Source of the DNA: an uncultured bacterium
Lineage (GTDB): Bacteria; Acidobacteriota; HRBIN11; JAKEFK01
Assembly (NCBI GenBank): GCA_963777505.1
Contig: CAVZQN010000011.1
Coordinates: 195,775 to 259,774, forward strand
Direction: 5' to 3'
DNA length: 64,000 nucleotides
The position numbers were made by a program, and so were the translations under genes. The notes under the pieces are model-generated. The model made no database searches and was not told the DNA's origin. It saw only the letters and a list, made by a program, of their open reading frames with translations. Of the stretch, positions 23,791-45,715 are shown in pieces. How positions within the stretch are numbered: position 1 is the first letter of the stretch; each line of letters starts with the position of its first letter.

Positions 23791-24750
23791 TTAGTCAAAA
23801 TCAATGGGGCTTTGGATACCCTCAACTCCTTTTAAGATGTGAGTGTAAATCATTGTAGTCCTGACATCTTTGTGACCAAGTAATTGTTGAACAGTTCGGA
23901 TGTCATAGCCTTTTTGGAGCAAGTGAGTTGCAAAACTATGGCGAAAGGAGTGGCAGTTGCCGGGTTTGATGATGTTCGACTTTTTGATTGCTGACTTAAC
24001 GGCTTTTTGAAGCAAAGATTCGCCGGGATGGTGTCGTCGGACCTTTTTTGAACGAGGATCTATTGAGCGCTTCAAAGCAGGAAAGACATATTGCCAGGCG
24101 AATGATTTAGCGGCGGAAGGATACTTATATGCCAGGGCAAAAGGTAAATAAACCGCTCCAAAACCTTCAGCGAGATCTTGTTCATGAAGTAGTTTCACCT
24201 TTTTGAGTTGCAATTGAAGTTGTGGTTTTAAAGACATCGGTAAAACTGTGATCCGTGCATTTTGACCTTTGGAATCTTGTACGATGATTTGATTCCGGTT
24301 AAAGTCAAGATCTTTAACGCGCAGTCGCAAGCACTCCATCAGCCGCAAACCTGATCCATAAAGTAAACTTGCCATTAATCGATAGGTTCCTTCCATGTTG
24401 GATAAGATTGTTTTTAGTTCTTGTTGAGTGAAGACTATCGGGTACTTCTTTTTAGATTTTGCCCGTAGGATATTGTCGATTTTAGGAAGTTCAAGATTCA
24501 GGACATCCTTGTAAAGGAAAATCAAAGCGCAGAGAGCCTGGTTTTGTGCGGAGGCGGATACTTTATTGTGCACCGCAGGTGACTTAAAAAGTTTCGGAGC
24601 TTTCGGCACCTAGCAGAGCTGGATCTTTTTGATGATTGAACAAATAGTATCGTTTGATCCAGTTCAAGTAACTATTTTCGGTCCTGAGACTGAGGGTTTG
24701 AGTCGTGCTGTTTGCCGGATCCGGTCGGATAATTTTGGCGGACGGTTCAT
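23791..24750 (-). pseudogene. intI: Integron integrase IntI with three single-base frameshifts in the 5' region
   Basis: [24 protein letters not shown], and the integron-specific insert [20 protein letters not shown]; N-terminus reconstructed from ATG 24750 (AGGAG SD) across frames. Confidence 0.92.
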
Positions 24751-24774
24751 AGAGTTTTCTCCTGCCCGCCATAA

Positions 24775-24803
24775 TGGAATTATCTGCCAATTTGGCGTAT
24801 AAT
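24775..24803 (+). promoter_or_regulatory. Candidate cassette promoter Pc
   Basis: TGGAAT-17 bp-TATAAT pointing toward attI. Confidence 0.65.
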
Positions 24804-24814
24804 CAGCCCTAAAG

Positions 24815-24852
24815 GCGTGTTATGGCAACTTGCAATATATTAGTAGTTAGGC
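24815..24852 (+). other. attI site (core GTTAGGC at 24846-24852)
   Basis: G/TTAGGCCGC is complementary to the cassette-1 end GCGGCCGAAC; lies just upstream of divergent intI. Confidence 0.85.
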
Positions 24853-24862
24853 CGCACTATGA

Positions 24863-25224
24863 ATGCATGACTTACCTATTCATTTGGATATTCTCCGGGC
24901 CTTTTGGCTATTTTTTAGCGGTGTCGGAATAATTCTGGGCCTATATCAGCAGAGCTACATACTGATCGTTTTTGCAATTGTTGTGTTCGTCGGCTCCATT
25001 CTCTTAAAAAAGCGACCCACTGTTGGTCGCATTGTCCTTCTACTCCACTTTGCTTTACAAATTTTAATGACACCCAAAATTTCATTGTTGTTGGTGTGAA
25101 ACCGATATTAATTCTGCAATTCATTTTGGGCTGTATATTCGTTTATGTTCTTTGGCGGTTTAATCCAAATCATGTTGCGGCCGAACAAATCACTGCAGCG
25201 GACACGTCCTCGGGCTCTCGCTAA
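24863..25224 (+). CDS. Cassette 1: membrane protein, probably frameshifted near 25060
   Basis: Hydrophobic ORF 24863-25099; a shifted frame continues ...FIVVGVKPILILQFILGCIFVYVLW into attC1. Confidence 0.55.
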
Positions 25225-25266
25225 CGCTCGAGCCCTGCGGCGTGCCGCTGAGTTCAAGCGTTCGCT
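25180..25266 (+). other. attC1 (87 bp)
   Basis: GCCGAAC...ACTGCAGCGGACACG...CGTGCCGCTGAGT...GTTCGCT with extrahelical bases. Confidence 0.9.
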
Positions 25267-25285
25267 GGCCGATAACACTTCACTC

Positions 25286-25759
25286 ATGACACTCAAGACC
25301 CTTTGTTGTCCATACTGTAAGGAAACGATTAGCGCGGCAAGAGGTCTTGTAAGGTGCAGAGCGTGCCGCACATTTCATCATCAACATTGTTGGGAATCCA
25401 ATGGGCAATGTTCAGTGTATGGCTGTAAAGGAGTTGCCCTCCACTATAGAGGAAGATTTGGCAGGTTCGCCAAGTGGCCAATCAACGCAATTATTGTGGT
25501 CTCATTTACTGTAGCGGTCCTGCTTAGTGCTGCCGTCTTTGAAATTCCCTGGTTAGCGCATTTGACTTTTACGCTTGCTGGCTTTTCAACTTCATATCTA
25601 TTTTTTAGCGCCTATCGCGATCCAGAGCGCAGCGATGTTACTCGTTGGTTATGGGATTCGTGTGAGAGGCAGTCAATTAGGGGTGCCAAATATTTGTGGA
25701 TTCTATCAATCGGTTCAATAATCATTGCCATTGCAAATCTCGCATCGTTGTTCACTTGA
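25286..25759 (+). CDS. Cassette 2: prokaryotic RING-finger (Prok-RING_1-like) plus TM helices
   Basis: CPYCKETI...CRACRTFHHQHCWESNGQCSVYGC followed by three hydrophobic segments. Confidence 0.75.
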   Translation: MTLKTLCCPYCKETISAARGLVRCRACRTFHHQHCWESNGQCSVYGCKGVALHYRGRFGRFAKWPINAIIVVSFTVAVLLSAAVFEIPWLAHLTFTLAGFSTSYLFFSAYRDPERSDVTRWLWDSCERQSIRGAKYLWILSIGSIIIAIANLASLFT

Positions 25760-25775
25760 CAGTTTCTAATCGGCC

Positions 25776-25960
25776 AGCGAACAAGTCATTGCAGCCGACG
25801 CCTCCTGCGCCTCTTCAGGCGCCCGCTTTGCAATTTGCTAAAAATACATTTTTGAAAAAGAAAACATAAATCGGCTATCATCGATTGTGCTGGAACAAGC
25901 TTCGCAAAGCGTGCGCCTTCATTCGGCGCAGTTCGGCGCGGCTGAATTCCAGCGTTCGGC
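25776..25960 (+). other. attC2 (185 bp, promoter-bearing)
   Basis: AGCGAAC...GTTCGGC; TTGAAA(25852)-18-TATCAT(25876) in the loop. Confidence 0.88.
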
Positions 25961-25966
25961 CTCATA

Positions 25967-26362
25967 ATGGGACAGAAGAATATACCCGGGATAATTATTT
26001 CTGCTCAGTGCGCAATCGTTTTCATATTTTTTATACAGATAAGAATTGAGTATCAACAACCTCATTCACTTACAAACCTACTGGTTCTCTCACTAATTGC
26101 GATAGCTGTTTTGTCTGCAGCTGCAGGATTATACTTTCGTAGCCGTATTGCTAGAATCGTCGCATCTCTTCTTCTTATTTATGTAGGGTTCAGAGGCTTT
26201 TATCTCTTTCATGGGATGTATCAGTTAATTAAACCAATAGATTTAATTGAAACGTTTGTGTTTGGCATTCTAAACCTTGCTCATGCGTATTGCATCTATT
26301 TGGCAATTGCCTTGTTTCTGAGTCGCCAAGCAAAACTGTACTTTAGTAGCGAACGCATTTGA
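25967..26362 (+). CDS. Cassette 3: four-TM hypothetical membrane protein
   Basis: ORF fills the cassette; stop abuts attC3. Confidence 0.8.
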   Translation: MGQKNIPGIIISAQCAIVFIFFIQIRIEYQQPHSLTNLLVLSLIAIAVLSAAAGLYFRSRIARIVASLLLIYVGFRGFYLFHGMYQLIKPIDLIETFVFGILNLAHAYCIYLAIALFLSRQAKLYFSSERI

Positions 26363-26363
26363 G

Positions 26364-26547
26364 GCCGAACAAGTCATTCGAGCGGACAACACCCGCGTCT
26401 CGCTCAGTCTTACTGCTTGCAAATACTTTTAAAGGCATTTTGCTTACGAAAAAGTTTTTCGGTTATCATGGTCCGTGCTGGTGAAGAGTTGCAAGCAGCA
26501 AGCCTTCACTCGCCTGCGGCTGTTGCCGCTCAATTCCAGCGTTCGGC
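26364..26547 (+). other. attC3 (184 bp, promoter-bearing)
   Basis: GCCGAAC...ATTCGAGCGGACAAC / GTTGCCGCTCAAT...GTTCGGC; TTGCTT(26440)-18-TATCAT(26464). Confidence 0.9.
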
Positions 26548-26553
26548 CACGCT

Positions 26554-26951
26554 ATGGACACGATGATCATAACCAGAGAACATGTCTGTCGAAAGCTTAT
26601 CGATTGGCGTGAAGGTAGAATCACCTCCGCTGACATTTACGAATGGGCCGGATCTCTGTATCCCAATACCGATCATGATTACGAGGATTGGGAGGGAGAT
26701 CAACAATCGGAGTCAGCACAAACGAAGTTCTCGGTGCTCTGGTCATGTTGAACTATGAATCTGAATGTCCCGAAGATGCAGAAATCTTCATAGAATTCCT
26801 GTCCACACCGGTGGGTCGCTTTCACGAAGGTTATGCGGTTCTCCTGAAAAAACTCGATGCCATAGACTATGACAAACGCAGGGTAATGTTGCGCGACGAT
26901 CCACTCTATGCTCCGTTCCTCTCTCAACCACACAATGATAAACTGGTCTAG
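26554..26951 (+). CDS. Cassette 4: acidic hypothetical protein with one frameshift near 26700
   Basis: ORFs 26554-26751 and 26688-26951 overlap and together fill the cassette. Confidence 0.65.
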
Positions 26952-26956
26952 GCGTG

Positions 26957-27041
26957 GCCGAACAACTCATTGCACCGGACGCTCACCGCGTCTTCGCTTC
27001 GCTCATCCGCGGATTCGCGCCTGTGAATTCCAGCGTTAGCG
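26957..27041 (+). other. attC4 (85 bp)
   Basis: GCCGAAC...GTTAGCG hairpin. Confidence 0.88.
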
Positions 27042-27069
27042 GCGGTTTGAGTTCAAAGCGAGCTGTATC

Positions 27070-27468
27070 ATGGGAGTCACTGGAGAATCCGACGCAATAG
27101 ATTCAATTCTACAGACATCGAGCCTTCGCCCTTACAAAGTGTGGCATGTTGGGGACGAACGAATACAGGGAAATGGTAAGGCAGGTATTCATGAGAGCTC
27201 TGGCTTCAACATCGATATAAGCAAAAATGATGAGCTCTCTGAAGCAATTAAGGATGCAATAGCTTTTCTCAACAGTTGGAAGACCGAGCTACAAAAACTC
27301 TGTCAAACACAAGGCCTTGAACCTTCCGTTATTGATTTCGGATTATTTTGTGGAATTCATTACTTCGCTCATCATGATCATCTTCCTGCCACACTGATTC
27401 AACTGGCGGCTGAGAGTGGTCTAGCAATCGAGCTATCTCATTACAGATCAGATTATAACGCCAGCTAA
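27070..27468 (+). CDS. Cassette 5: DUF4279-like hypothetical protein
   Basis: VWHVGDER...SGFNIDIS...LIQLAAESGLAIELSHY pattern; stop lies in the attC5 left core. Confidence 0.6.
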   Translation: MGVTGESDAIDSILQTSSLRPYKVWHVGDERIQGNGKAGIHESSGFNIDISKNDELSEAIKDAIAFLNSWKTELQKLCQTQGLEPSVIDFGLFCGIHYFAHHDHLPATLIQLAAESGLAIELSHYRSDYNAS

Positions 27469-27632
27469 CAAGTCATTCGAGCGGACAACACCCGCTCTTG
27501 ATTCAGATATTTGCCTTGCCTAATGAAAATAAACCTACAGGTTAGTGAAAGTCTCGGTTCATGATCGTTGGTGGCAGCAAGCAGCAAGCCTTCATTCGCT
27601 GGCGGCGTTGCCGCTCAACTCCAGCGTTATAC
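27463..27632 (+). other. attC5 (170 bp, long family, degenerate loop)
   Basis: AGCTAAC-AAGTCATTCGAGCGGACAACACCCGC...GCAAGCAGCAAGCCTTCA...GTTATAC. Confidence 0.85.
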
Positions 27633-27672
27633 GGCTTGAGCACAAACTTCAGTAACAGAATTGGAGGATAAC

Positions 27673-28065
27673 ATGACGCCCTATATCGACGGATTCGTAC
27701 TCCCCGTGCCGCGCGACCAGCTAAAGTCGTATAGAGAAGTTGTTGAAAAGGTAGCGGAGATTTGGAAGGAACATGGCGCACTCGATTACTCAGAATATGT
27801 TGGTGACGATTCAAATTTGGAGGGCACCCGATCTTTCCCTGATGTCGCGAACACAAAGGAGGATGAAGTCGTCATCTTTGGATGGGTCGCATTCGAATCT
27901 CGTGAAGCGCGTGATCTTGCTAATAAGAGGGTCGCAGCCGACCCAAGGATGTCGGATTTGATCAATCCACTGACGAATACATCGAGGCCGGTTTTTGATG
28001 CTAAGCGGATGGTGTATGGAGGATTCCGGTCGCTCGTTCAATCATCTAGTCAGAACGCCGTATAA
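27673..28065 (+). CDS. Cassette 6: DUF1428 (YbaA-like) protein
   Basis: YIDGFVLPVP, WKEHGALDYSEYVGDD, FDAKRMVYGGF; GGAGG SD. Confidence 0.9.
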   Translation: MTPYIDGFVLPVPRDQLKSYREVVEKVAEIWKEHGALDYSEYVGDDSNLEGTRSFPDVANTKEDEVVIFGWVAFESREARDLANKRVAADPRMSDLINPLTNTSRPVFDAKRMVYGGFRSLVQSSSQNAV

Positions 28066-28131
28066 CAAGCAAATGCAGCCGACAAATTTTCCGCTGCGCT
28101 CCAAATTTGCGGCTGATTTGCGGCGTTCGGC
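28060..28131 (+). other. attC6 (72 bp, different sequence family)
   Basis: GTATAAC-AAGCAAATGCAGCCGAC...GCGGCTGATTTGCGGC-GTTCGGC. Confidence 0.9.
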
Positions 28132-28598
28132 GTGACGAAATTCTGCGAATTTTTCTTTTATTAGTATTTGTTTTGCCCTTTTTTGCTTGTAGCGGTCGCA
28201 CAAAGTCCAATCCAAAATCTGCCTCGAACTTCGAAGCTTTTCCTCCCGATTATGACCCCGAGCTTTTCGAGGTGCCATTCTGTGATTTGGATCAACGACA
28301 CATCGGACAACTCATCGCCTTGCATGGCGTCTTGATCAATAAGAATAACAATTGGCTGCTACAAGCTGGTGCTGAGTGTAATAGCAACAATGAACTAGTT
28401 GTACACGTTGAATCTCACAAGTCTTGTGCCGGAGATGACGTTTCAGAAAAACTTAGCGAAATCAATAATGATGACAACATAACAGGAAATGTTCTGGTTT
28501 ATGGCACACTGCTAAGATCGCAATCGACGTATGCATTCAATGTCACGTGTTTTGACTATGTTCAAATAATTAAGCCATGTAACAGTGGACTCGACTAA
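28131..28598 (+). CDS. Cassette 7: predicted lipoprotein (start codon unclear)
   Basis: Hydrophobic stretch ending FFA-CS lipobox-like; ORF fills the cassette. Confidence 0.6.
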   Translation, partial: RDEILRIFLLLVFVLPFFACSGRTKSNPKSASNFEAFPPDYDPELFEVPFCDLDQRHIGQLIALHGVLINKNNNWLLQAGAECNSNNELVVHVESHKSCAGDDVSEKLSEINNDDNITGNVLVYGTLLRSQSTYAFNVTCFDYVQIIKPCNSGLD

Positions 28599-28608
28599 CC
28601 GAAGTCAC

Positions 28609-28699
28609 GCCGAACAAATCGTTCGAGCGGACAACACCCGCGTCTCATTCAGTCTTGCTGCTTGCATTAAGCTCAATTGCATTTTGCTTACTAAAAATC
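28609..28699 (+). other. attC7, left arm only (long family, truncated within the promoter loop)
   Basis: Similar to the attC3 left arm through TTTTGCTTAC.AAAAA, then unrelated sequence. Confidence 0.8.
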
Positions 28700-28795
28700 G
28701 CGACTTGAAGGAATATAAGGTTAATATCCTATCGTTTAAGGTTGTGAAGAATGCTGACATTATTATGAGCGAGGAAGGATTAATCAAGGTCCCGA

Positions 28796-29807
28796 TTGCG
28801 TCTGAGTAGCGGCACCGTATTAGAATCAATCGTAGAGACGCGCGCGGAGAGATTGCGTGATTTTTTTCGAGGTCAGAGCGGAGCGGTTCATGTTGCATTT
28901 GAAGTGGGGACGCAATCAGCCTGGCTGTACGAGATTCTAAAGTCACTGGTGAGCAGCATAACGGTTTGTGATGTTCGCAAGAATAAACGGCGAGGGAACA
29001 AGAGCGATCGCATCGACGCGCACAAGTTAGCCAGCTGGCTGCGGCTCGGCGAATTAAACAAGATCTATCAAGGGGATCGAAACACTCGCAAACTGAGGGA
29101 CTTGGCTCATGGTTATTTAGCCACAGTCAGTGATTCGATTCGGGTAATGAATCGGATTAAGGCGCTTTACCGAGGTTGGTCGATCCGCTGTGCGGGCCCA
29201 GATGTTTATTACAAACGAAATCGGCAACAGTGGCTTTCAAAACTTCCAATTGATGAAAGTAGGATGCGAGCTCTTCTCTATCTACACTCAGTTAGATTTA
29301 CTCAAAGAACAACGCAAAGAAATCAAGAAAGTATTTTTAAAGGAAGCCAGACGTTATCCAATACAAAAGATTTTGCGTGGGATTCCCGGTTTTGGTCCAA
29401 TCCGTGCAGCTTTGTGATAGCTGTCGTTGGAACTCCGCACCGTTTTCGAACCGACCGTCAGCTTTGCAGTTACAGTGGATTATCGGTTGTCATTCATTCC
29501 ACTTCTGATCATGACATCATCGGCGGCCGGATCATTCGAAAACAGCACAAGCATGCCACCCGCGGACTTACGCGGGATTATAACCGTATCTTAAAAATGG
29601 TTTTTAAGAGTGCGGCAGTGGAAGCAATCCGAAAAGATCCAATGAAAACATTGTACCGGCGAAAAATTGCCAAAGGGATTCAGCCAGATGGCACTTCTTT
29701 CGATTGCCAGAAAACTTGCAACAATCACTCTGATACTTTGGAAGCGAGGTGAAACATTTAACACAGCGAAAAAGCAAGTCGTTCGAGCGGACATCAACCG
29801 CGTCTAG
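28796..29807 (+). pseudogene. IS110-family transposase remnant (5'-truncated, several frameshifts)
   Basis: VAFE, KSDRIDA (DEDD RuvC-like), IPGFGPIRAA, YSGL and IARKL occur in different frames; first catalytic Asp motif absent. Confidence 0.85.
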
Positions 29808-29931
29808 CTCAGGCTTGCTGCTTGGACCAAGTTTCAAATGCATTTTGCTTGCGGAAAAAGTTTTTCGGTTATCATGGTCCGTGCTGGTAAAGAGTAGCAA
29901 GCAGCAAGCCTTCACTCGCCTGCGGCCGCTC
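29765..29931 (+). other. Degenerate long-family attC (attC8) retaining the promoter loop
   Basis: Close internal match to attC3; TTGCTT(29845)-19-TATCAT(29870); both core sites damaged. Confidence 0.8.
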
Positions 29932-29982
29932 TTGTGTAACTTAAAAACGCCTAACAACGGCATGCAATCGTAGGAGAGTTAT

Positions 29983-30597
29983 ATGAGGAAACTTATTGCG
30001 TCAACATTTACATCACTGGACGGTGTCATGCAGGCGCCAGGAGGACCGGAGGAAGATCCAACCGAAAACTTCACATTAGGTGGTTGGACCTTCGCTTTCG
30101 AAGACGAAGCAATGGATCTTTCTGAGGCAGGTTTCGATGGTAAAGATCGAGAGCTTTTACTCGGCCGCAAAACCTACGAAATATTCGCGGGATATTGGCC
30201 TCACCAACCAGAGGATAATCCGATTGCGAGGACATTCAACGCGGCAAAAAAACATGTGGCGTCCCGGACTTTGAAGTCATTGCAATGGAACAATTCGTCG
30301 GTACTTAGCGGTGACATCGTTTCAGCGATAACCGCGCTCAAGGCTCAGCCCGGACAAGACCTTCAAATCATTGGCAGCGGCAATCTGATTCAGACACTAC
30401 AAGCCGCAACACTCATTGACGAATACCACGTATGGACGTACCCGGTAGTTCTTGGCGGTGGAAAGCGATTGTTTGAAAATGGTGCAAGGCCATGTGCACT
30501 GCGGCTCGTGGCTTCGAAGGTTTCAAAAACTGGCGTTGTGATGAGCACCTATGTTCCAGCTGGCGATATTCGGCTTGGCACAGTTGGCGAATCCTAG
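29983..30597 (+). CDS. Dihydrofolate reductase/RibD C-terminal family protein
   Basis: TSLDGVMQAPGGPEED, LLGRKTYE, GSGNLIQTL, PVVLGGGKRLF. Confidence 0.92.
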   Translation: MRKLIASTFTSLDGVMQAPGGPEEDPTENFTLGGWTFAFEDEAMDLSEAGFDGKDRELLLGRKTYEIFAGYWPHQPEDNPIARTFNAAKKHVASRTLKSLQWNNSSVLSGDIVSAITALKAQPGQDLQIIGSGNLIQTLQAATLIDEYHVWTYPVVLGGGKRLFENGARPCALRLVASKVSKTGVVMSTYVPAGDIRLGTVGES

Positions 30598-30600
30598 CCG

Positions 30601-30725
30601 CAACACTCCGTCTCGCTCAGGTCTGCCGCTTGCATTCAACTAAAATTCGCTTGTGGCAGGGAAAACTCTAGTCCGTTAGAATTATCTATGCTGGGAACAC
30701 AAGCAAGCGACAATCGGCGTCCAAT
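30601..30725 (+). other. attC remnant (long family) with -10-like box
   Basis: CAACACTCCGTCTCGCTCAGG..CGCTTGC...TAGAAT(30677)...ATGCTGG...GCAAGCG; no core sites. Confidence 0.6.
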
Positions 30726-30767
30726 TCTGAAGGAAATTCTAGTGATGCCACCAAAGGAGTTTCTGTC

Positions 30768-31226
30768 TTGACTACATATGAAGTCTATGCCGTTTTTTTC
30801 GCTATTCTGCAGCTCCTCATTTCGGGCCTCGGATTCATTGTTATCGCTTGGACGCTCCGTGTTCTCGTTCGATCAATCGATGCACAGTCGAGTTCCGGAG
30901 TAGCAGTACGGCAATTGGAGTTCGACAAGGTCGTTCTTACTTATCCTTGTCTCTACAAGTACTTCTACCAGGGGCAGGACATCAGCTCCGACGACCCTGA
31001 GTATCCTCGCGCTATGGCTGCGACCCAACTTCTTGCCAACTACTTCGATGGTTACTTCCAGCAACAAGGCAAGTACCGACAGATGTGGCCGGACAAGAAG
31101 TGGAAAAGCTACATCCAAGATCACGTCGCAAAGAGCCCGGTGTTACGTCGCTACATAATTGAGAACAATACCTGGTTCTCTTCTGAATTCGTGCAGATGT
31201 GCCAGTCAGTTGGACTACAGCGATGA
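30768..31226 (+). CDS. Hypothetical protein with N-terminal TM helix (cassette-like)
   Basis: AAGGAG SD before TTG start; lies between attC remnants. Confidence 0.7.
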   Translation: MTTYEVYAVFFAILQLLISGLGFIVIAWTLRVLVRSIDAQSSSGVAVRQLEFDKVVLTYPCLYKYFYQGQDISSDDPEYPRAMAATQLLANYFDGYFQQQGKYRQMWPDKKWKSYIQDHVAKSPVLRRYIIENNTWFSSEFVQMCQSVGLQR

Positions 31227-31269
31227 TGATTCAGAAACCTTTTAGCAACTTCCTAGACAAGTGTGATCC

Positions 31270-31378
31270 TCTTCAGTCGCTTGCATCGCATCATGCATTT
31301 TGAAAAAGAAAACATAAATCGGCTATCATCATTGTGCTAGGTGAAGCTCAGTAAATCTAATCGGCGAAGCTGAATTTC
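31270..31378 (+). promoter_or_regulatory. attC remnant reduced to the promoter loop
   Basis: 33 nt (31298-31330) identical to attC2 25850-25882; TTGAAA-18-TATCAT. Confidence 0.75.
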
Positions 31379-31896: not shown

Positions 31897-32604
31897 ATGC
31901 CGAATAAACCTCTCCACATCGGAATCGTTGCCTGCTCCGCTGAAGGAGCAGCATTGTGCTACAGAACCATTTGCACAGAAGGTGCACACTTACTTGGGCA
32001 ACACGCACATCCAGAAGTTTCAATGCACACGCACTCTTTTTCTGACTACGTAGCCAGCATTGACCGTGATGATTGGAAAGGGGTCGGCGATCTGATGCTT
32101 TCCTCCGCGAATAAACTAGCTAATATGGGCGCAGATTTTCTGATTTGTCCTGATAACACGATCCATCAGTCCTTATCCTATATAAAGGATGCCTTGCCAC
32201 TTCCATGGTTGCACATAGCGCATGTTGTTGCCGCGCGAGCAAAGGAGCTTGGTTACCAACGACTTGGTCTTACTGGAACACGATGGCTTGTTGAGAGTGA
32301 TGTCTATCCAACCGTCCTGGAACAGAACAAACTGTCTTATGTTCGGCCGAGTAAGGAAGAACGTGACGAAATCAATCGCATCATCATGGATGAATTGGTT
32401 CCAGGAATATTTAAACAAGAAGCGGTAGAGTATTTTCAAAATGTAATGATGCGACTGAAGGACCAGGCTTGTGATGCAGTCGTTCTGGGATGTACCGAAA
32501 TTCCCATAATTATGAATGACACGAATTCACCTCTTCCAACCCTCGACTCAACACGACTGCTGGCGCGAGCCGCACTTCAACGGGCCATTGCAGGAAAGAC
32601 TTGA
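31897..32604 (+). CDS. Aspartate/glutamate racemase family protein
   Basis: ICPDNTIH, VLGCTEIP, LDSTRLLA. Confidence 0.9.
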   Translation: MPNKPLHIGIVACSAEGAALCYRTICTEGAHLLGQHAHPEVSMHTHSFSDYVASIDRDDWKGVGDLMLSSANKLANMGADFLICPDNTIHQSLSYIKDALPLPWLHIAHVVAARAKELGYQRLGLTGTRWLVESDVYPTVLEQNKLSYVRPSKEERDEINRIIMDELVPGIFKQEAVEYFQNVMMRLKDQACDAVVLGCTEIPIIMNDTNSPLPTLDSTRLLARAALQRAIAGKT

Positions 32605-32682: not shown

Positions 32683-35600
32683 ATGATCGGTAATCGTCTC
32701 GCCAATCGCTACGAAATTATCAAAGAGTTAGGCCGCGGGGGCATGGGGGTTGTATACCTTGCCCACGATCCAGTTTTGGATCGCAATGTTGCCATCAAAG
32801 TAGTCATGCCGGATGTCGTAAGTCCGGAAAGTGCTGAACGCTTTAAGCGAGAAGCACGTGTGGTGGCAAAAATGGATCATCCTTCCATAGTTAGTGTTCA
32901 TGACAGCGGTGAACACGAAGGCTCCCTTTTCTTTGTAATGCCTTTTGTAGAAGGTGCAAATCTTCGTTCGATGCTGAAAAATGAAAGTTTAAGTCTCGGT
33001 GATTTGATTGAAGTTGCAGTTCAGATTGCCGATGCGCTTGAATACAGCCATTCGCGCGGTGTTGTGCATCGTGACATCAAACCTGAAAATTTGATGGTTA
33101 CACATAAGGAAGGGGAGGGAATTCGAGTCCGTGTTACTGATTTTGGTCTCGCAATGGCGCCAGCTCAAGAGCGGATCACAAAGACAGCAACGATTGTTGG
33201 AACTCTTGCATACATGAGTCCCGAACAGGTTGCGGGAAAAGAAATTGATTCGCGCTCTGATATTTATGCATTCGGTACCGTCTTATATGAATGTCTGGTT
33301 GGTGAACCTCCTTTTGCAGGTGAGGTTCAGGTTCTTCTTTATAGAATCGCGCATGAAATTCCAGCACCTCCTCATACATTGCAACGTGACGTTGATGTGG
33401 AAATTGAAGATGTAATTTTACGAGCTCTAGAAAAAGATCCTGCCAGAAGACCAACGGGTAAAGAAATTGCGGAAAGACTGACTACGTATCGCAGAAAGCT
33501 CCTGACCAGCGGCCGCAATCGTGCAATGCTTCCTTCTTCAATGACGCTCAGTTTTCAAATGCCGCGTCCGTCGATGCGTCCTTTTGTTGGACGCGAAAAG
33601 GAATTTGCAGATTTACAGAAACGGCTCAATGCTGCTATTTTGGGCGAATGCCAATTCGTTCTTGTTTCGGGTGAAGCTGGAATTGGGAAAAGCAGGCTGG
33701 TTGAAGAATTAGAAAATCTCTCGCGTGTTCGTTCGATTCCGGTTTATCATGGCCGTTTTGTGGAAGTCAGTCATCCTTTGCCGTATCAAGGATTTGGCGA
33801 AGTCATCCAGGAATATTTCCGTACGAAACCCTCTTCTGTTACTCCAGTTGATTTTTCGGATCTTGCATCCGAATTGATCGCGCTCTTTCCTGTGCTCGCA
33901 GAAGTTAAAGAACTGTCTACGCATTCGGAAGAGACAGCAAAAACAATCCAGGAAGCCGGCGCGCGAAAATTTGAAGATCGCACTTATATATTTGAATTAC
34001 TTGCGCGAACCATTACACGGATTGCCGGCGGAAAACCGATTGTCCTTTTATTCGAAGACCTCCACGCTGCAAATGTGTCGATCGAAGCTCTTGATTACAT
34101 CGTAAGAAGACTCGGTCCAACATCGACGCTCATTGTCGGAACTTATCGCACTACCGAAGTTGATAAACGTCATCCACTGATGAATTTGCTCAGTGGTTTT
34201 AAAGGGGATAAACGTTTCACTCAACTTCAACTCGCTCCTTTGTCTCCATCAGGGCATCGCGAATTCTTGGAATTACTGATGGGCGGATCAAAACTCGGCG
34301 ATGATCTCGTCCAAAAATTTTATGATGCAACGGAAGGCAACCCGTACTTTACTTCTGAACTTGTACGATCGTTGATCGATTCCGGAGGCATTGTTCGTGA
34401 TGATACAGGCTCATACAAACTTTCAAGCGAGACAGCTCTTTCAGTTGAAGAACTTCCGGTAACGATTCAGCAAACTGTGGAAGAAAGGATTGAAAGACTT
34501 CCGAAGGATCTTCGTGAAGTTCTTTCAGTGGCATCCGTTCTGGGAAAGAATTTTGAGTATCGTGATCTTGAAAGGCTTCTTCCTGAAGAAGAGAATCCTG
34601 AACCCGCTGTTGAGCAGTTAATTCGTGAAAGTTTTATTGAAGAAGACCGCCAATCGCGTTCTGACCGTTTGACGTTTTCCAGCGGAGTTTTGCGCGACGT
34701 TTTGTATTCTTCACTTCCAAGACGAAGACGGCGTGCGCTTCATAAAAAGCATGCGGAAGAAATTGAAAAAAGAAATTCGGGGCGGCTGGAGCGTGTGTAT
34801 CCTCAATTGTTTGAACATAATGTTCAGGGGGATGTTCCGGAAAAAGTCGTTGAATACGGCTTTTTGCTCGCAAAGAAATCACTCGAGGCATTCAGTCCGA
34901 CCGATGCCATAACAGTTCTGCAAACCGTTCTGGACTTTCTGGAAGAAGAAGGCGGAAATCGATCGGCGGAAGTTGAAGCAAAGAGTTTGCTGGCATCAGC
35001 TCATCAGATGATGGGAAATGTCGATGTGGCCTTAGAAGAGATGCAGTCTGCTATCCAAATTCTGGAAAAGGTAAAAGATGTATCGGGTCTTGTGGTTGCT
35101 GTTCTTACAGCTGCTGAAATTGCATGGCAAGGAAGAAAAGTTAATGAAACCAGGAAATGGGTGGAGAAGGGTCTTGACCTTGCTTCAATGGAAAAAGATT
35201 CGGGTAGTGTAACGCGTCTCCTTTCCATGGCAGCAACGATTGCGAATCTACGGGGCGAATACGATAAAGCTCGCGAATATTTGAGTGAAGCAGAGCGATA
35301 TACTCCTGCACAAGAAGCACAGGAAGAAGTTACACAAGGCGGTAGATTGATTGTTGCCGTTACAAATCCTTGTAAAGCACGTCATCCTGCGAATGCATTT
35401 TTTAACGAAGAAACCGAAACTCTTTCAAACGTTTATGAAACGTTGGTTACAACGAACGCTCATGGAAACTTGATTCCACATTTGTGTGAACGTTGGGAAG
35501 CATTGGAAAATGGAGCTGTTTTTCAATTTACAATTCGCAGTGATGTGCGGCTGCACAATGGAAAAAAATTAACAGCCCAGGATGTAAAAGAGTCGTTTTC

Positions 35601-38310
35601 GCATGCAATCAAAACTCCATCGGAGGCCTTGATTCCTGCCTTTGCAACGATTCGTGGTGCATCTGAATATCGTAATGGAACAGCATCCGAGTTGGTTGGG
35701 ATTTCCGGGCTTTCCGATAACCTGATTCAGATCGAATTATTAAATCCGCTTCCAATTTATCCAGCTTTGCTGACTGATATTCGTTCTGCAATCGCTGTAA
35801 AAACTGAAGGCAAAACACAGGATGAAGATATTTTTCTAGGCACCGGACAGTTCGAAATTGAAGCATTCAAAAATGATGCAATCGTATTGAATAAAAATCG
35901 AAACTATTGGAAGGGGAGTGCGCCTCATATAGATTCCCTTGAGATTCGAACAGCCCTAAGCTCGGCAGAAGTGGCTCAGGGTTTCCGTTCCGGGAAATTC
36001 GATCTTGTGCGCGATCTTCTGCCTCAGGATCTTGAAGAAATACTTCGCGATAGACAGTTGAGAGCTGCCCTTGTTGAGGCGCCCAAGAAAAATACATATT
36101 TCGTCGTTTTTAATTCGTTCAGTGAAATTGGCAAAAATCTGAATGTACGCCGCGCACTCGCAGGCGTAATTCGCGCGCGCGATCTTGTCCGAAGCACTCT
36201 CGGCCGTTTCGCTGAACCAGCCGAAGGAATTTTACCGCCAGGAATTTTAGGCCATGATCCAGGCCGAAGATCTCAACCGATTGGTGCGGAGAAAGCTGCT
36301 GAATTAATTCAATCTTGTGGTCTGACACCTCCAATCCGCATTAAAGCCGCAGTTCATCCCATCATTCAAGATCGTTATGCATCATTCCTTAAGGATCTAT
36401 TGCGAAGCTGGTCGCAACTTGGAATAGAAACGACGAACACGACTCTTGATATGGAGTCGTATAACAAGGCTTTTTCGACAAACGAAGGAATTGATGTGCT
36501 AATCGGAAGATGGATCGCAGACTACGATGATCCTGATGCCTTTACATATGGACTCTTTCATTCAGAATTCGGAGAACTACGCGCGTATCATTGCTCAAAA
36601 GATCTGGATGATCTGATGTCGGAAGCAAGAAGCAAAAGTGAACCTCCTGACCGGGAAAGGATTTATCGGAAGATTGAGAGTGTTTTTCATGATACGGCCG
36701 CACTACAACCACTCTTTCATGAAATCGATTATAGAGTTGCAAGTCCGAAGATACGAAGACTGACACTTCGTAGCAGTCCACCTTACGTGAACTATTCAGA
36801 ACTTTCAAAAACAGAAATGGTTTTTGAACCAGTAGTTCGAAAAACTCATGGAGGTACGTTACGAATACCGTCCATTGCGGAGTTGAAGACTTTTAATCCG
36901 GCGAGTATGGTGACTGGCAGCGAATCCAGTTTGTTTTCTACAGTATTCGAAACACTGACACAAGCTGCCGAAGGAGCCAGAATCGTACCCTGGCTTGCTT
37001 CATCTTTCCAGGCTGAAGATGGTGCAAAGAGATTCCGTTTTCATCTGCGTAGTGATGTGAGATTTCACAACGGCCGGAGACTTACGGCAAGAGATGTGCG
37101 ATATTCCTTTGAGCATCTTCTCCTGACAGCCGGAAGCGCCTATCGTTCACTTCTTTCTCCTATTCGCGGGGCACGCGAAATGTTGGACGGTCAAACGAAG
37201 GAATTGAAAGGATTCCGGATTCTTTCTGCATCGGAGTTTATCGTCGATTTGGAAGAGCCAATTCCTTTCTTTCCTGCACTCCTTGCATTTGGAGTCGCCT
37301 CAATTATTCCTGAAGGCACGGAGCAATTTTTAGGAAGTTGGAGAGAAGGTTGTGTTGGAACGGGTCCACATCGAGTCACCTCATTTGAACCGGGACGTAC
37401 ATTAAAAGTTGAAGCAAACCCGAACTACTGGAGAAGCGGTCTTCCAAAAAGTGATGCATTAGAATTCACAATGGGAACATCTCCGAAAGATGTTTTGGAA
37501 GGTTTTAAGAGCGGAGAATTTTCAGTTGCGACAGATCTTCATCCTAGCGATGCAGAAGCTTTGCTGCACAGTTCCAGTATGGATGTGAAATATCAAGATA
37601 TCCCAAGTCTTTCGACATATTATATTGTGTTCAATACACGGCGTACTCCCTTTTCCGATGAATCCATGCGACGTCGTTTCACGGAGGCATTGGAAGTAGA
37701 TCCCTTGATCCGCCGTACTTTGGGCCGGCTTGCAGTACCAGCAATGAGTTTGACGCCTCCCGCTCTTCTTGGACATCAACCGACCCGTAGAGCTGTAACA
37801 TCCTCTCACCCCAAGAAGAATCAACCTCCAATTGAAGTAACAGCAATGGTTCATTCTATTTTTGAAGGACAATATGGATCCTTGAAGAATGAAATTTTTA
37901 GAATTCTTAGTGAAGCCGGATTTACCCTGAATCTTCTTGAAACAAAAGCAGAATATTATGAGCCAGTTGGAATTCCATCAACAGATGTGATTCTTACAAG
38001 ATGGCTTGCGGATTATCCGGACGCCGATACATTTTTTTATGGATTGCTTCATTCTGAAAAAGGATGGGAAGGAAAATTTTGCGGTGGACCTGAATTGGAT
38101 AGCCTTATTGATGGTGCACGAAGGGAATCTGATTCTAAAAAAAGGCACTCTTTGTTCAGGCAGATTGAAGAATTACTTCAACAGCGGGCTCTATTGCTCC
38201 CGTTATTTCATGAACAGACTTATTGCTTTACACGTCCCGAAGTAGAAGGTCTGGAATTGAGTTTCTTCTCACCATATATCTACTGGGAAAAACTCTGGAT
38301 CCGACAATAA
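32683..38310 (+). CDS. Ser/Thr kinase + AAA_16/STAND ATPase + helical repeats + two family-5 solute-binding domains
   Basis: GRGGMG, HRDIKPEN, DFG; GEAGIGKS (aa 330) and LLFEDLH; SBP5-like repeats from about aa 886 and 1390 (YETL/FETL, VRLHNG/VRFHNG, GTG, WIADY/WLADY). Confidence 0.9.
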   Translation: MIGNRLANRYEIIKELGRGGMGVVYLAHDPVLDRNVAIKVVMPDVVSPESAERFKREARVVAKMDHPSIVSVHDSGEHEGSLFFVMPFVEGANLRSMLKNESLSLGDLIEVAVQIADALEYSHSRGVVHRDIKPENLMVTHKEGEGIRVRVTDFGLAMAPAQERITKTATIVGTLAYMSPEQVAGKEIDSRSDIYAFGTVLYECLVGEPPFAGEVQVLLYRIAHEIPAPPHTLQRDVDVEIEDVILRALEKDPARRPTGKEIAERLTTYRRKLLTSGRNRAMLPSSMTLSFQMPRPSMRPFVGREKEFADLQKRLNAAILGECQFVLVSGEAGIGKSRLVEELENLSRVRSIPVYHGRFVEVSHPLPYQGFGEVIQEYFRTKPSSVTPVDFSDLASELIALFPVLAEVKELSTHSEETAKTIQEAGARKFEDRTYIFELLARTITRIAGGKPIVLLFEDLHAANVSIEALDYIVRRLGPTSTLIVGTYRTTEVDKRHPLMNLLSGFKGDKRFTQLQLAPLSPSGHREFLELLMGGSKLGDDLVQKFYDATEGNPYFTSELVRSLIDSGGIVRDDTGSYKLSSETALSVEELPVTIQQTVEERIERLPKDLREVLSVASVLGKNFEYRDLERLLPEEENPEPAVEQLIRESFIEEDRQSRSDRLTFSSGVLRDVLYSSLPRRRRRALHKKHAEEIEKRNSGRLERVYPQLFEHNVQGDVPEKVVEYGFLLAKKSLEAFSPTDAITVLQTVLDFLEEEGGNRSAEVEAKSLLASAHQMMGNVDVALEEMQSAIQILEKVKDVSGLVVAVLTAAEIAWQGRKVNETRKWVEKGLDLASMEKDSGSVTRLLSMAATIANLRGEYDKAREYLSEAERYTPAQEAQEEVTQGGRLIVAVTNPCKARHPANAFFNEETETLSNVYETLVTTNAHGNLIPHLCERWEALENGAVFQFTIRSDVRLHNGKKLTAQDVKESFSHAIKTPSEALIPAFATIRGASEYRNGTASELVGISGLSDNLIQIELLNPLPIYPALLTDIRSAIAVKTEGKTQDEDIFLGTGQFEIEAFKNDAIVLNKNRNYWKGSAPHIDSLEIRTALSSAEVAQGFRSGKFDLVRDLLPQDLEEILRDRQLRAALVEAPKKNTYFVVFNSFSEIGKNLNVRRALAGVIRARDLVRSTLGRFAEPAEGILPPGILGHDPGRRSQPIGAEKAAELIQSCGLTPPIRIKAAVHPIIQDRYASFLKDLLRSWSQLGIETTNTTLDMESYNKAFSTNEGIDVLIGRWIADYDDPDAFTYGLFHSEFGELRAYHCSKDLDDLMSEARSKSEPPDRERIYRKIESVFHDTAALQPLFHEIDYRVASPKIRRLTLRSSPPYVNYSELSKTEMVFEPVVRKTHGGTLRIPSIAELKTFNPASMVTGSESSLFSTVFETLTQAAEGARIVPWLASSFQAEDGAKRFRFHLRSDVRFHNGRRLTARDVRYSFEHLLLTAGSAYRSLLSPIRGAREMLDGQTKELKGFRILSASEFIVDLEEPIPFFPALLAFGVASIIPEGTEQFLGSWREGCVGTGPHRVTSFEPGRTLKVEANPNYWRSGLPKSDALEFTMGTSPKDVLEGFKSGEFSVATDLHPSDAEALLHSSSMDVKYQDIPSLSTYYIVFNTRRTPFSDESMRRRFTEALEVDPLIRRTLGRLAVPAMSLTPPALLGHQPTRRAVTSSHPKKNQPPIEVTAMVHSIFEGQYGSLKNEIFRILSEAGFTLNLLETKAEYYEPVGIPSTDVILTRWLADYPDADTFFYGLLHSEKGWEGKFCGGPELDSLIDGARRESDSKKRHSLFRQIEELLQQRALLLPLFHEQTYCFTRPEVEGLELSFFSPYIYWEKLWIRQ

Positions 38311-38392: not shown

Positions 38393-39280
38393 ATGAAAGC
38401 TCTACTTAGGTTCTTTGTCGCTTTATTCTTTCTGTCAATCTCATCTGCCCAGAACAAACCGCCTCAAGTGCTTCTTCGGATCGATGACAATGGAATGAAT
38501 CACGCAGTTGTTGCGGCATCAAAACAGCTTGCTGAAACTGGCATTCCTTTTTCTACATCGGTGATGTTTACATGTCCCTGGTATCAAGAAGCTGTAGATG
38601 TATTGAAACAATTTCCAAATGTTTCAGTGGGTGTGCATCTTGTGCTGAACAGTGAATGGAAGTATTACCGTTGGGGGCCGGTGTTAGGCAAAACCGCCGT
38701 GCCAAGCCTCGTAGATGGCGACGGATATTTTCTGCCTTCAACGGATGGATTTTTGGCGAGCTCATACAAGCTCGATGAGGTTGAAAAAGAATTATCGGCA
38801 CAAATAGATCGCGCAAAAAAGTCAGGATTAAAGCTGGATTATGTTGATTATCATATGTGGACGGCTATCGCGACTCCGCAACTAAGAGCGATTGTAGAAA
38901 AACTTGCCAAACAGAATCATCTTGGAATTTCCCGCTATTTCAACGAAGAGTATCAATCCATGTTTGATGTGTCACTTGAAACAAAAAGCGACGAATTTTT
39001 TAAACGTCTTCAGAATTTGCCAAATCATAAGGTGAATTTGATCGTGATGCATATTGCGCAAGATACGCCAGAGATGCAAGCACTTGTTGATATGAATAAT
39101 CCGGATCAACGTTCAGAAACAAAACCGCTGGTCGCAATGCATCGTTCAGCGGAATTGAAAATTCTGCTTTCCAAACGTTTTCAAGACCTTGTGAAAACCG
39201 GCGCGATTCAGCTGGTCACATACAGAGACATTGTAAAGACTCAGGGCTTAGATTCTATGAAGGCTCCGGAAGATGATTAG
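38393..39280 (+). CDS. YdjC/ChbG family carbohydrate deacetylase, exported
   Basis: RIDDNG, GVHLVLNSEW, DYHM; signal peptide. Confidence 0.88.
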   Translation: MKALLRFFVALFFLSISSAQNKPPQVLLRIDDNGMNHAVVAASKQLAETGIPFSTSVMFTCPWYQEAVDVLKQFPNVSVGVHLVLNSEWKYYRWGPVLGKTAVPSLVDGDGYFLPSTDGFLASSYKLDEVEKELSAQIDRAKKSGLKLDYVDYHMWTAIATPQLRAIVEKLAKQNHLGISRYFNEEYQSMFDVSLETKSDEFFKRLQNLPNHKVNLIVMHIAQDTPEMQALVDMNNPDQRSETKPLVAMHRSAELKILLSKRFQDLVKTGAIQLVTYRDIVKTQGLDSMKAPEDD

Positions 39281-40689
39281 TTGCTTTGCGTTTCCGCGGT
39301 TTGCGCTTCTAGAAATGTGCGGACGACTTCTTCGATCCCATCACGTCCGTAAATAAAAAATAATTCATTTGATCGTGGAGCGCGTCTCAAATAGTCAACT
39401 TCAGGAACGCGCGGATAATCGGGACGAAACAACAAGCCTGACATATCGCAGGTGTCCTGTTCATCAGGCGAAAGACGAAGGTCGTGCATCGATTCCAGCG
39501 CAAACAATTTTCGCAGCTGAAGGCTCCGGTTCACTGGATGTGAATATACACCTTCAATCATCATGTCATTGATTGACCAGGGCGGAAGTGACATGACTGT
39601 ACCTGCCGGACCAAAAGGATATCGATTTTTAGATGCATGATTTGTGTAAAGTAAAAATTTTGCACTCTGATTCCACTTCTCAAGCGCCTGTACAAGAGCG
39701 ACAGTCGCGTAATCGTGATCAAGATGCGTATCTAATAAGGGATGTGGAGTCACAATGATTGCCGGCTTCACTTTGCGAAGAATTTCGGTGAGATCTTCAA
39801 CCAGATGATTCCATGTATTCGTGCGGGATGATGTCGGCAGCAACTTTCCAATATTGGCGCGCCTGTAAGGCGCAACATCCTGGTTAGGTCCGTACAATTC
39901 AGGAATGACTTGATCGGGTGATTGGTACATTGTTGAAAGCTGCGCGTCAAAATATCCAAGATTGAAAGTACGTTCCGGAGGAATCTGCCCTTGCCATGGA
40001 ACTGTAACGCTATCAACAGCGCGCAAATAACCTTTCAGTAAATAATGCTCCGCTGGATCGCTTACGTTCGCGCGATAATTCATGTCTCCTGCATTGCCGG
40101 ATGTGATTGTGATAATTGTTGCATCGCGATCCGCATACAGACCGAATGCTGCGATTTCAGCATCATCAGGATGTGGGGCCAGGATTAAAATTTTGCTTCG
40201 AAGATCCAGGTTGTTTGTAAAAAGGCGCAATGTTGCTGTCGCTGCTTCGAGTGTAATGGCGTGAGTGCGGAGCTCTACGGAAGTTCCTTCAACAAGTTGT
40301 TCGCGGAGTTCGCTGAGATTGAGCCATCGATATCCTAACGCATTCCCATCCAGATAGTGCTGAATTCGCAATGTCCCCGCTGTTATTTCTATCCATGGGA
40401 TCGCTTCAGCACCCCAACTGCGAACACCTAGAAATATTGTGTCCCATTTACGTGCTGCCGGACCAGGCCATTCAAAACGCAAACCGTCAGGTGTTCGAAC
40501 GAGTTCTACTTGCTGTTCAGTGCTGCCATCCGCGGAGAAAATATAGCGATCATCAGGCACAGTTGCTTCTGGCACAGATGGGGCTGGGGGTATGTTAATC
40601 TGCTGCGGCGACGGCTCCTGCCGATCACGGGCCTGAATTGAACCTACAATTGCAAATGTTAGAAAGATCAGTATTAATACCCGGTTCAT
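39277..40689 (-). CDS. PIG-L family deacetylase, exported
   Basis: ILAPHPDDAE, HLDH; signal peptide from MNRVLIL. Confidence 0.85.
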   Translation of the reverse strand: MNRVLILIFLTFAIVGSIQARDRQEPSPQQINIPPAPSVPEATVPDDRYIFSADGSTEQQVELVRTPDGLRFEWPGPAARKWDTIFLGVRSWGAEAIPWIEITAGTLRIQHYLDGNALGYRWLNLSELREQLVEGTSVELRTHAITLEAATATLRLFTNNLDLRSKILILAPHPDDAEIAAFGLYADRDATIITITSGNAGDMNYRANVSDPAEHYLLKGYLRAVDSVTVPWQGQIPPERTFNLGYFDAQLSTMYQSPDQVIPELYGPNQDVAPYRRANIGKLLPTSSRTNTWNHLVEDLTEILRKVKPAIIVTPHPLLDTHLDHDYATVALVQALEKWNQSAKFLLYTNHASKNRYPFGPAGTVMSLPPWSINDMMIEGVYSHPVNRSLQLRKLFALESMHDLRLSPDEQDTCDMSGLLFRPDYPRVPEVDYLRRAPRSNELFFIYGRDGIEEVVRTFLEAQTAETQSN

Positions 40690-40797
40690 GAGTTGTCCCA
40701 TCATTATACCTGCGATAGAGTTGGCTATATATTTCTTCTTTGCATCGACAAACAGCGTTCTGGGATTATTTTTGATCCATAGAGTTGGAGGGCAGCC

Positions 40798-45549: not shown

Positions 45550-45715
45550 AACTCCTCCTAGAAGGTACATTCCCCTTCATTAGGTCATTACGCATTTCGA
45601 TCCAAAATCACGCCAAAAATAATTTCCTCGTCGAGATCCCGCTTGTTCTTCGTTATGTCCCACACCCAACCTTTTTGTTTGCCGAACGCGGTCAAAATGT
45701 TATTATTCGATGCTT

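Follow-up and report, generated by a model that had tools for sequence, protein, structure and literature searches.

The gene at positions 32683-38310 of the DNA analyzed here, a 64,000-nucleotide stretch (the window) of contig CAVZQN010000011.1 from an uncultured bacterium of the Acidobacteriota (GenBank assembly GCA_963777505.1), encodes a real, soluble signaling protein in which a kinase, an ATP-driven switch and two transporter-type peptide-binding domains are joined. This is established by the identity and order of the domains, the lack of export signals, the conservation of catalytic, P-loop and ligand-anchoring residues, and the range of the family. With fair confidence, we favor the reading that the protein is a ligand-gated STAND kinase of the PknK/MalT type, in which two diverged binding modules of the family-5 solute-binding protein (SBP) type, both cytoplasmic, act as the sensor of a small and probably peptide-like ligand. 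STAND kinases are known; a tandem cytoplasmic family-5 sensor is without description in the literature searched, and the family is large, unstudied and mislabeled in databases as transporter parts.

Domain architecture and conservation of the kinase family

The open reading frame (ORF) is unbroken on the plus strand, with an ATG at 32683, a stop at 38308-38310 and 5625 open bases, and the N-terminus of its 1875-residue product, MIGNRLANRYEI, agrees with the family consensus. Comparison of the product with Pfam revealed Pkinase at residues 10-264 (177 bits; cut-off 31.7), AAA_16 at residues 300-481 (64.1 bits; cut-off 32.6), the tetratricopeptide repeat (TPR) family TPR_12 at residues 740-796 (30.5 bits; cut-off 30.1) and SBP_bac_5 in two stretches (350.7 bits in total; cut-off 32.4). 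NCBIfam gave partial, sub-threshold likeness to named kinases and to OppA, DppA, NikA and SgrR.

Homologs were sought among 5.8 billion clustered proteins, and the best 120 were listed and aligned. Pkinase, AAA_16 and SBP_bac_5 are present in all 120. With few exceptions, these proteins align over 99-100% of the query (51-85% identity), and their named sources are Acidobacteriota, Blastocatellia and Pyrinomonadaceae. Their database name is "ABC transporter substrate-binding protein" (ABC, ATP-binding cassette), and there are hundreds of such entries. Two main sizes were present, with 74 of the aligned proteins at about 1850-1930 residues and 43 at about 2100-2170 residues; the long form has a second kinase domain at the N-terminus. 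The phylum was also surveyed in an even sample of 401 Acidobacteriota genomes, in which a match consisted of the helical/TPR region together with the first SBP domain (SBP1) in frames of about 1860-2170 residues. This survey revealed 25 positive genomes from at least 12 coded families, among them the unpublished genome G024. All seven genomes of the window's own family were positive, mostly with both short and long forms, a pattern suggesting that an old duplication has been inherited vertically. The fusion is thus real and old, not an assembly artefact, and the doubt that an earlier interpretation of this DNA (the sequence-only reading) had attached to it, that it might be missing from other genomes, is removed by its presence in all of these homologs and genome sets. 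Mean identity to the query residue over the 120 members was 0.64 in the kinase, 0.63 in the NTPase, 0.625 in the helical region, 0.50 in the TPR, 0.51 in SBP1 and 0.50 in the second SBP domain (SBP2); judged by this alignment, every module is under constraint.

The genome that contains the window holds three copies of the gene: the short form described here, a long form on contig C1 (L062:8173-14622; 2149 residues) and a split copy on contig C4 (L063:8028-12099; contig positions 1102051-1106092). The long paralog has two tandem kinase domains, both with G-loop, VALK/VAIK, HRD and DFG motifs, and on these motifs the first domain does not appear to be an obvious pseudokinase. The third copy is split into a kinase-AAA_16 ORF of 746 residues and a TPR-SBP ORF of 613 residues, has one SBP domain only and, within the first match, two TGA codons in frame; it is a copy in decay or else a variant with a single SBP. 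Elsewhere in the phylum sample, genome G388 carries two members about 3 kb apart on the minus strand of contig C2 (L067, 84000-100000; matches at 88016-90607 and 93698-96292), an arrangement that points to local duplication. The kinase query matched 124 times across the window's genome.

The kinase domain carries the G-loop GRGGMG, K39, D131 of HRD, N136, D153 of DFG and an SPE motif at residues 179-181. K39, D131, N136 and D153 are retained in 119 of the 120 members, and the remaining kinase motif positions in at least 116. The modeled domain has a bilobal fold that aligned with PknB (1mru_A) over 251 residues (Z 27.7; root-mean-square deviation 3.0; 39% identity). Foldseek comparison with PknB and PknA gave target-normalized TM-scores of 0.74-0.83, and the PknB, PknA and Stk1 kinases were nearest to the model. 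The domain is an RD kinase, and Thr166 and Thr168, which we take to be comparable with the phospho-threonines of PknB, are conserved in a low-confidence activation loop. In the linker that follows, mean conservation was 0.275 over residues 271-299, compared with 0.50-0.64 in the domains.

The P-loop NTPase has a Walker A motif, GEAGIGKS (residues 330-337), and a Walker B motif, LLFEDLH (residues 455-461); G333, G335, K336 and E458 are retained in all 120 members and D459 in 106. In the AlphaFold2 model, the P-loop core leads into helices and short hairpins, after which come an arm-like helical stretch and seven repeat helices. Residues 482-735 are modeled as strands at 482-489 and 512-516, then helices and short hairpins, and the seven regular helices lie at 739-871 with a pLDDT of about 88-95. 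The predicted secondary structure fits the layout of a nucleotide-binding oligomerization domain (NOD), with its helical domain, winged helix and arm. The published STAND scheme comprises a sensor, an arm, a NOD and an effector, with inducer-driven multimerization; it names PknK as an example of a STAND kinase and assigns AAA_16 to the PknK/MalT type (PMC4381067). By sequence family, the NTPase is a STAND module of this AAA_16 type and not an NLR in the narrow sense. The term "NLR-like" used in the sequence-only reading therefore holds in the broad STAND sense and fails in the narrow one, as neither NACHT nor NB-ARC was among the 12 Pfam families listed at E values up to 0.01. In Vicinamibacteria there are kinase-AAA_16 proteins with 37% identity in the NTPase region and about 800 further residues without an SBP_bac_5 match; the kinase-AAA_16 scaffold thus takes different C-terminal ends.

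The two SBP domains align with each other end to end (33% identity; E 1e-90), and each matches full-length periplasmic DppA/OppA/MppA chains. An AlphaFold2 model of residues 880-1875, made from a 32-row alignment, had a pTM of 0.50 and a pLDDT of 84.5, with SBP1 mostly at 80-96, and each domain by itself was well defined. Foldseek matched it to liganded and unliganded peptide-binding proteins, including 8upi, MppA (4toz and 3o9p), OppA (1b52 and 2z23) and DppA (1dpp), with E values of 1e-37 to 1e-30 and target-normalized TM-scores of 0.72-0.87. Both SBP halves model as complete, two-lobed folds of the OppA/DppA/MppA kind. In HMMER alignments, Asp408 of DppA corresponds to D1280 in SBP1 and Asp419 of OppA to D1777 in SBP2. 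D1280 is invariant in all 32 rows and conserved at 90% or above in 120 members; D1777 (D898 in that alignment) is invariant in all 32 rows and conserved at 90% or above in 118 members. In OppA, Asp419 anchors the ligand at its alpha-amino group (PMC9967938). Asp408 of DppA is among the salt bridges to the charged termini of the ligand, and the presence of another residue in its place in HbpA2 speaks against the binding of peptides there (PMC3295651). Collapsed binding clefts had been a concern of the earlier interpretation; as modeled, both domains are intact and keep the residue predicted to anchor the ligand.

Comparison of the two SBP domains over the family revealed 51 columns conserved in both as the same residue, 5 conserved in both as different residues, 77 conserved in SBP1 only and 56 in SBP2 only. 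This orderly divergence indicates that each copy is under its own constraint. It is the pattern that would be expected of two copies with separate maintained roles, and two ligands are not proven by it. Relatives of SBP1 among shorter proteins amounted to 137 matches, and the twelve N-termini inspected start in the TPR/helical region or inside the SBP. The short matches start mid-domain or come from short contigs and so appear to be members of this family that are truncated or have miscalled starts; no close free-standing relative of SBP1 was found in this set.

Hydropathy was measured as the 19-residue Kyte-Doolittle mean, with a mark of 1.6, in the product and in the 120 family members. No signal peptide or transmembrane (TM) segment was found in the 1875-residue protein and no hydrophobic segment reached the mark; the maximum, 1.54, lies within SBP2. 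As the N-terminus is the kinase itself, the whole protein is predicted to be cytoplasmic. Means of at least 1.6 occur in 18 of the 120 members, scattered over positions that match buried strands, and no consistent hydrophobic stretch between the TPR and SBP1 was found across the 120. In one member an N-terminal extension contains a hydrophobic stretch, for which a wrongly called start is the probable cause. An exported location of the SBPs was rejected on the hydropathy of the protein and of the 120 members. The sequence-only reading had placed two complete OppA/DppA-type domains in the cytoplasm, as the sensor of a STAND protein whose N-terminal effector is a kinase, and had noted no evident signal peptide or TM segment; the Pfam matches, the hydropathy profiles and the models agree with it, and no TM helix precedes residue 886. 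The features of the gene are collected in Table 1.

Table 1. Coordinates of the kinase gene, the modules of its product and the adjoining stem-loop (window positions)
Feature	Position	Strand	Remarks
Whole gene	32683..38310	+	Kinase, STAND NTPase, TPR, two SBP_bac_5; 1875 residues plus stop
Hanks-type Ser/Thr kinase domain, residues 10-264	32710..33474	+	Pfam Pkinase, 177 bits
Kinase-NTPase linker, residues 265-299	33475..33579	+	Poorly conserved, low-confidence; pLDDT <50 at 285-297
P-loop NTPase (AAA_16), NOD core, residues 300-481	33580..34125	+	Pfam AAA_16
Helical and winged-helix-like region plus arm, residues 482-735	34126..34887	+	AlphaFold2 model
TPR-like helical repeats, residues 736-880	34888..35322	+	TPR_12; model
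SBP_bac_5 domain 1, residues 886-1388	35338..36846	+	Asp1280 at the DppA Asp408 position
SBP_bac_5 domain 2, residues 1389-1875	36847..38307	+	Asp1777 at the OppA Asp419 position
Stem-loop	38313..38386	+	Directly after the stop; 74 bases, near-perfect GATGAA-type repeats

Predicted mechanism and alternative explanations

In MalT, the sensor and arm keep the NOD closed, and a small-molecule inducer leads to opening and multimerization (PMC4381067, PMC6468293). A ligand-gated kinase of this type would, at rest, have a closed NTPase module and be monomeric. One or both SBP clefts would close on a small ligand in the cytoplasm that has a free amino group (a short peptide or peptide-like metabolite is the likeliest kind), and the change would be relayed via the TPR and arm and relieve the autoinhibition of the NTPase. 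Opening of the NTPase would lead to nucleotide exchange and oligomerization, as in MalT, and the clustered RD-type kinases would trans-phosphorylate their activation loops (Thr166 and Thr168) and then other targets. The two inputs that the sequence-only reading had offered as a possibility are putative.

Several points weigh against this account, in which ligand binding, ligand identity, oligomerization and phosphorylation output are all carried over from homologous proteins. The Pfam TPR_MalT family matched residues 742-874 with 21.8 bits, under its cut-off of 45. A 13-row NOD-arm sequence profile found no significant solved relative of the NTPase-arm, its best match having an E value of 0.026 and covering the P-loop region only, and searches with the 885-residue model by VIA-align (48,161 chains) and by Foldseek (PDB) returned kinase matches only; the STAND label therefore rests on sequence-family grounds. 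The mutual placement of SBP1 and SBP2 was not confidently predicted, as reflected in the pTM of their joint model. In the putative binding sites, Gln1229 occupies the position of DppA Arg355, which by role and numbering we take to be the carboxylate-binding residue, and a family-invariant Arg1231 follows two residues on; the counterpart of OppA Tyr109 is a variable position in the family. As aligned, the SBP sites do not wholly fit a classical peptide site. No conserved phosphatase, FHA protein or transporter neighbor was found beside the gene in the window or at the other family loci compared (L001, L005-L007, L062 and L063).

It is unlikely, in our estimate, that the SBPs are instead protein-binding or scaffold modules, which, for example, dock unfolded or peptide stretches of the kinase's substrates or hold the rest state while the signal enters via the TPR and arm as in MalT. 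The MalT inducer does bind the TPR-like sensor together with the arm (PMC4381067), chaperone-like protein binding has been reported for OppA (PMC7442780, PMC9967938), and the Vicinamibacteria relatives, with their 800 or so residues free of SBP_bac_5, indicate that the scaffold can work with other C-termini. The TPR stretch is short here, however, at about 145 residues, and the aspartate that would anchor the amino group is invariant in both SBPs. Two full flytraps of 500 residues have been retained at about 50% identity across classes, and the same NTPase-SBP5 module is joined to cyclases elsewhere, as for a portable sensor.

Distinctly unlikely is an anti-phage STAND (Avs-like) receptor, in which the SBPs would sense a phage peptide or protein and the kinase would be the defense effector, acting on many targets or by growth arrest. 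PD-T4-6 and mad6 are among the PADLOC kinase models that the kinase domain matches, but the best 25 of the 35 matched families all fall within residues 1-291, the kinase region, and they are equally matched by an unrelated kinase encoded in the window. In this genome an integron adjoins the gene, within a stretch of about 41 kb that is non-collinear with a same-genus genome; at five other loci, by contrast, the neighbors are metabolic and envelope genes of an ordinary kind, with nothing shared with the window. STAND proteins with enzymatic effectors are described as common in defense, and the distribution across the phylum is patchy (25 of 401 genomes); against this, all seven genomes sampled from the window's own family have it, in most cases as one short and one long form, conservation of its sensor domains is similar to that of the TPR (roughly 50% over classes), and the SBP fold is a small-ligand binder. 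The defense role that the sequence-only reading had offered as an option thus has no specific support.

Next to no probability attaches to a chimeric assembly, or to a pseudogenized or decaying fusion of kinase and transporter genes. The split third copy, with its two in-frame TGA codons and one SBP, and the many family database entries that are fragments would be in keeping with such an origin. For the copy in the window, however, an artefact or misassembly is refuted by the frame that is open over 5625 bases, the 120 full or near-full-length homologs listed, the invariant catalytic motifs and the range across the phylum, and other copies, L001 and L062 among them, are intact on contigs as long as 3 Mb.

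Genomic context of the kinase gene

A genuine chromosomal integron is present at 23791-31355 of the window. Its integrase gene (23791-24609, minus strand) scored 377 bits on TIGR02249 (cut-off 265), with an ORF that covers model positions 54-313 only. Eight attC-like left ends were found at 25184-29792, where 0.47 would be expected by chance in the whole window, and weaker attC-like remnants extend to about 31355. An IS110-family transposase gene (28796-29752) lies inside the attC array, and an exact 33-base repeat occurs at 25850-25882 and 31298-31330. As the remnants end at about 31355, the kinase gene starts about 1.3 kb past the last of them; a DUF1801 gene and an amino-acid racemase gene (31897-32604) stand between. 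The possibility that the kinase gene is an integron gene cassette was rejected: it is a 5.6-kb gene with no attC-type repeat on its 3' side, the left ends of the array lying only at 25184-29792, and a different hairpin is found there instead. This stem-loop (Table 1) has a predicted RNA fold of -34.2 kcal/mol (z -8.9), with none of 200 shuffles folding as well, and is possibly a terminator or an element like the repetitive extragenic palindromic (REP) sequences. It was not called on the plus strand by a simple terminator scan, and consensus promoter and terminator scans around the gene gave no more sites than shuffles.

The ortholog at L001, from the same genus and 82% identical, has as neighbors genes for a DUF308 protein, a Rce1-like protease, a CDP-alcohol transferase, a decarboxylase and an M19 dipeptidase. 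In that genome (G041), the window segments at 5-13.7 kb and 55-58 kb adjoin each other (contig C4, 16.8-30.4 kb). The approximately 41 kb at window positions of about 14000-55000 are not collinear with this genome, and pieces of them are found on four other contigs or far away. Given the different neighbors at L001 and the scattering of the 41 kb, the gene sits in a rearranged stretch, and adjacency to an integron is not a property of the family. Of the proposal in the sequence-only reading that the gene abuts the integron tail, the integron itself and the closeness of the gene to its last remnant stand; the adjacency appears incidental.

No ABC permease or ATPase families were found among the 24 ORFs at 19.6-53 kb of the window (13 kb upstream and 14.7 kb downstream), in line with the sequence-only reading, which had seen no permease genes adjacent, and no such genes were found at L001, L005-L007, L062 or L063. 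TonB-dependent receptor genes lie near three of the latter loci and were given no weight. In addition to the racemase gene, the surroundings of the kinase gene include genes for a YdjC-type carbohydrate deacetylase (38393-39280), a PIG-L-type deacetylase (39277-40704), a D-Ala-D-Ala dipeptidase (23057-23704) and an M13 peptidase (45710-47764). These enzymes hint at peptide or cell-wall-fragment metabolism; none of them is conserved beside the L001 ortholog. A second large Ser/Thr kinase of 1096 residues, with a kinase domain and TPR repeats, is encoded at 19623-22913 (minus strand), just beyond the dipeptidase gene that flanks the integron integrase.

Relation to known systems and implications

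The protein resembles PknK of M. tuberculosis and the kinase-AAA_16-TPR kinases in its soluble N-terminal Hanks kinase, AAA_16 NTPase and helical repeats. It differs from PknK, which was compared by description and with a domain make-up that we in part presume, in that two SBP_bac_5 domains (about 1000 residues) replace the long MalT-like TPR sensor. Many Pkinase plus AAA_16 clusters were found in the cluster atlas in Myxococcota, Actinomycetota and Chloroflexota. The likeness to E. coli MalT lies in the switching scheme adopted here and in the weak TPR_MalT match described above; unlike MalT, which has a C-terminal DNA-binding effector, the protein has an N-terminal kinase effector and a Venus-flytrap sensor. 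With the cluster-C proteins OppA, DppA and MppA (8upi, 4toz, 1b05 and 1dpp) it shares the complete fold, the family-5 signature and the amino-group aspartate; it differs from them in having no signal peptide or lipobox, no nearby ABC permease genes, and a tandem fusion that follows ATP-using domains of the cytoplasm. Structural alignments with solved SBPs showed only 17-23% identity, compared with 33% between SBP1 and SBP2. SgrR, a helix-turn-helix (HTH) regulator with a cytoplasmic SBP_bac_5 domain as sensor, offers a precedent for such a domain within the cell. The NCBIfam SgrR model matched the protein weakly (59.3 bits; cut-off 476), and, unlike SgrR, the protein has no HTH family in its Pfam list, two SBPs and a STAND-gated kinase output.

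Control of a soluble Ser/Thr kinase by a solute-binding protein has been described in the mycobacterial GlnH-GlnX-PknG system (PMC8050422, PMC6069109), which is given in a review (PMC8050422) as the only characterized SBP-stimulated Ser/Thr kinase. Unlike here, the SBP of that system is extracytoplasmic, a separate protein, and acts through a membrane protein. The NTPase-SBP5 module recurs in Guanylate_cyc plus AAA_16 plus SBP_bac_5 clusters of the Actinomycetota in the atlas (169 and 74 members), labeled automatically and without alignments. These differ in having a cyclase effector and one SBP. A sensor role for SBP5 fits this occurrence of the same module with other outputs. A Chloroflexota atlas cluster of 73 has SBP_bac_5 in all members and AAA_16 in 42%; another Chloroflexota cluster with SBP_bac_5 has AAA_16 in 0%. 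The atlas also holds Pkinase-SBP_bac_5 proteins of about 930-1130 residues that, by automatic labels, have no NTPase between the two domains, and whose SBP may be outside the cell.

A further group of Acidobacteriota proteins, of about 1060-1085 residues, joins a methyl-accepting chemotaxis protein (MCP) signaling domain to a C-terminal SBP_bac_5 domain (L064:2777-6028, plus strand; L065:2667-5882, plus strand; L066:3637-6819, minus strand). These have two closely spaced N-terminal TM helices and no TM segment between the MCP domain and SBP_bac_5, and apparently represent a second cytoplasmic SBP5 architecture in the phylum. Frames of this size, matched by the SBP part only, occur in about 46 of the 401 sampled genomes (three examined).

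No published description of the kinase-STAND-tandem SBP architecture was found in the full-text literature, subscription journals not being covered, and a term look-up in two kinase surveys (PMC2877116, PMC6213207) returned no mention of a solute-binding or AAA module. Acidobacteriota STAND kinases, Actinomycetota STAND cyclases together with the Chloroflexota clusters, and Acidobacteriota chemoreceptors with a C-terminal SBP5 lead us to a tentative and doubtful generalization, that SBP5 flytraps form a general, cross-phylum class of cytoplasmic sensors with varied outputs. Here, the two diverged copies would gate a kinase by two ligands, perhaps reporting the internal pool of imported oligopeptides or recycled cell-wall peptides.

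The identification of signals for bacterial Ser/Thr kinases is described as an outstanding question (PMC6069109). As the type of sensor domain found here can be screened by routine binding assays, an entire family of kinases could be tested for its input. A review (PMC8050422) treats solute-binding proteins as extracytosolic, and the family extends them to predicted internal sensor domains of STAND switches. The naming of its entries as transporter proteins would mislead metabolic and transport inference for the Acidobacteriota, a dominant soil phylum. If the generalization is true, such reporting of the peptide pool might set growth in slow-growing soil bacteria.

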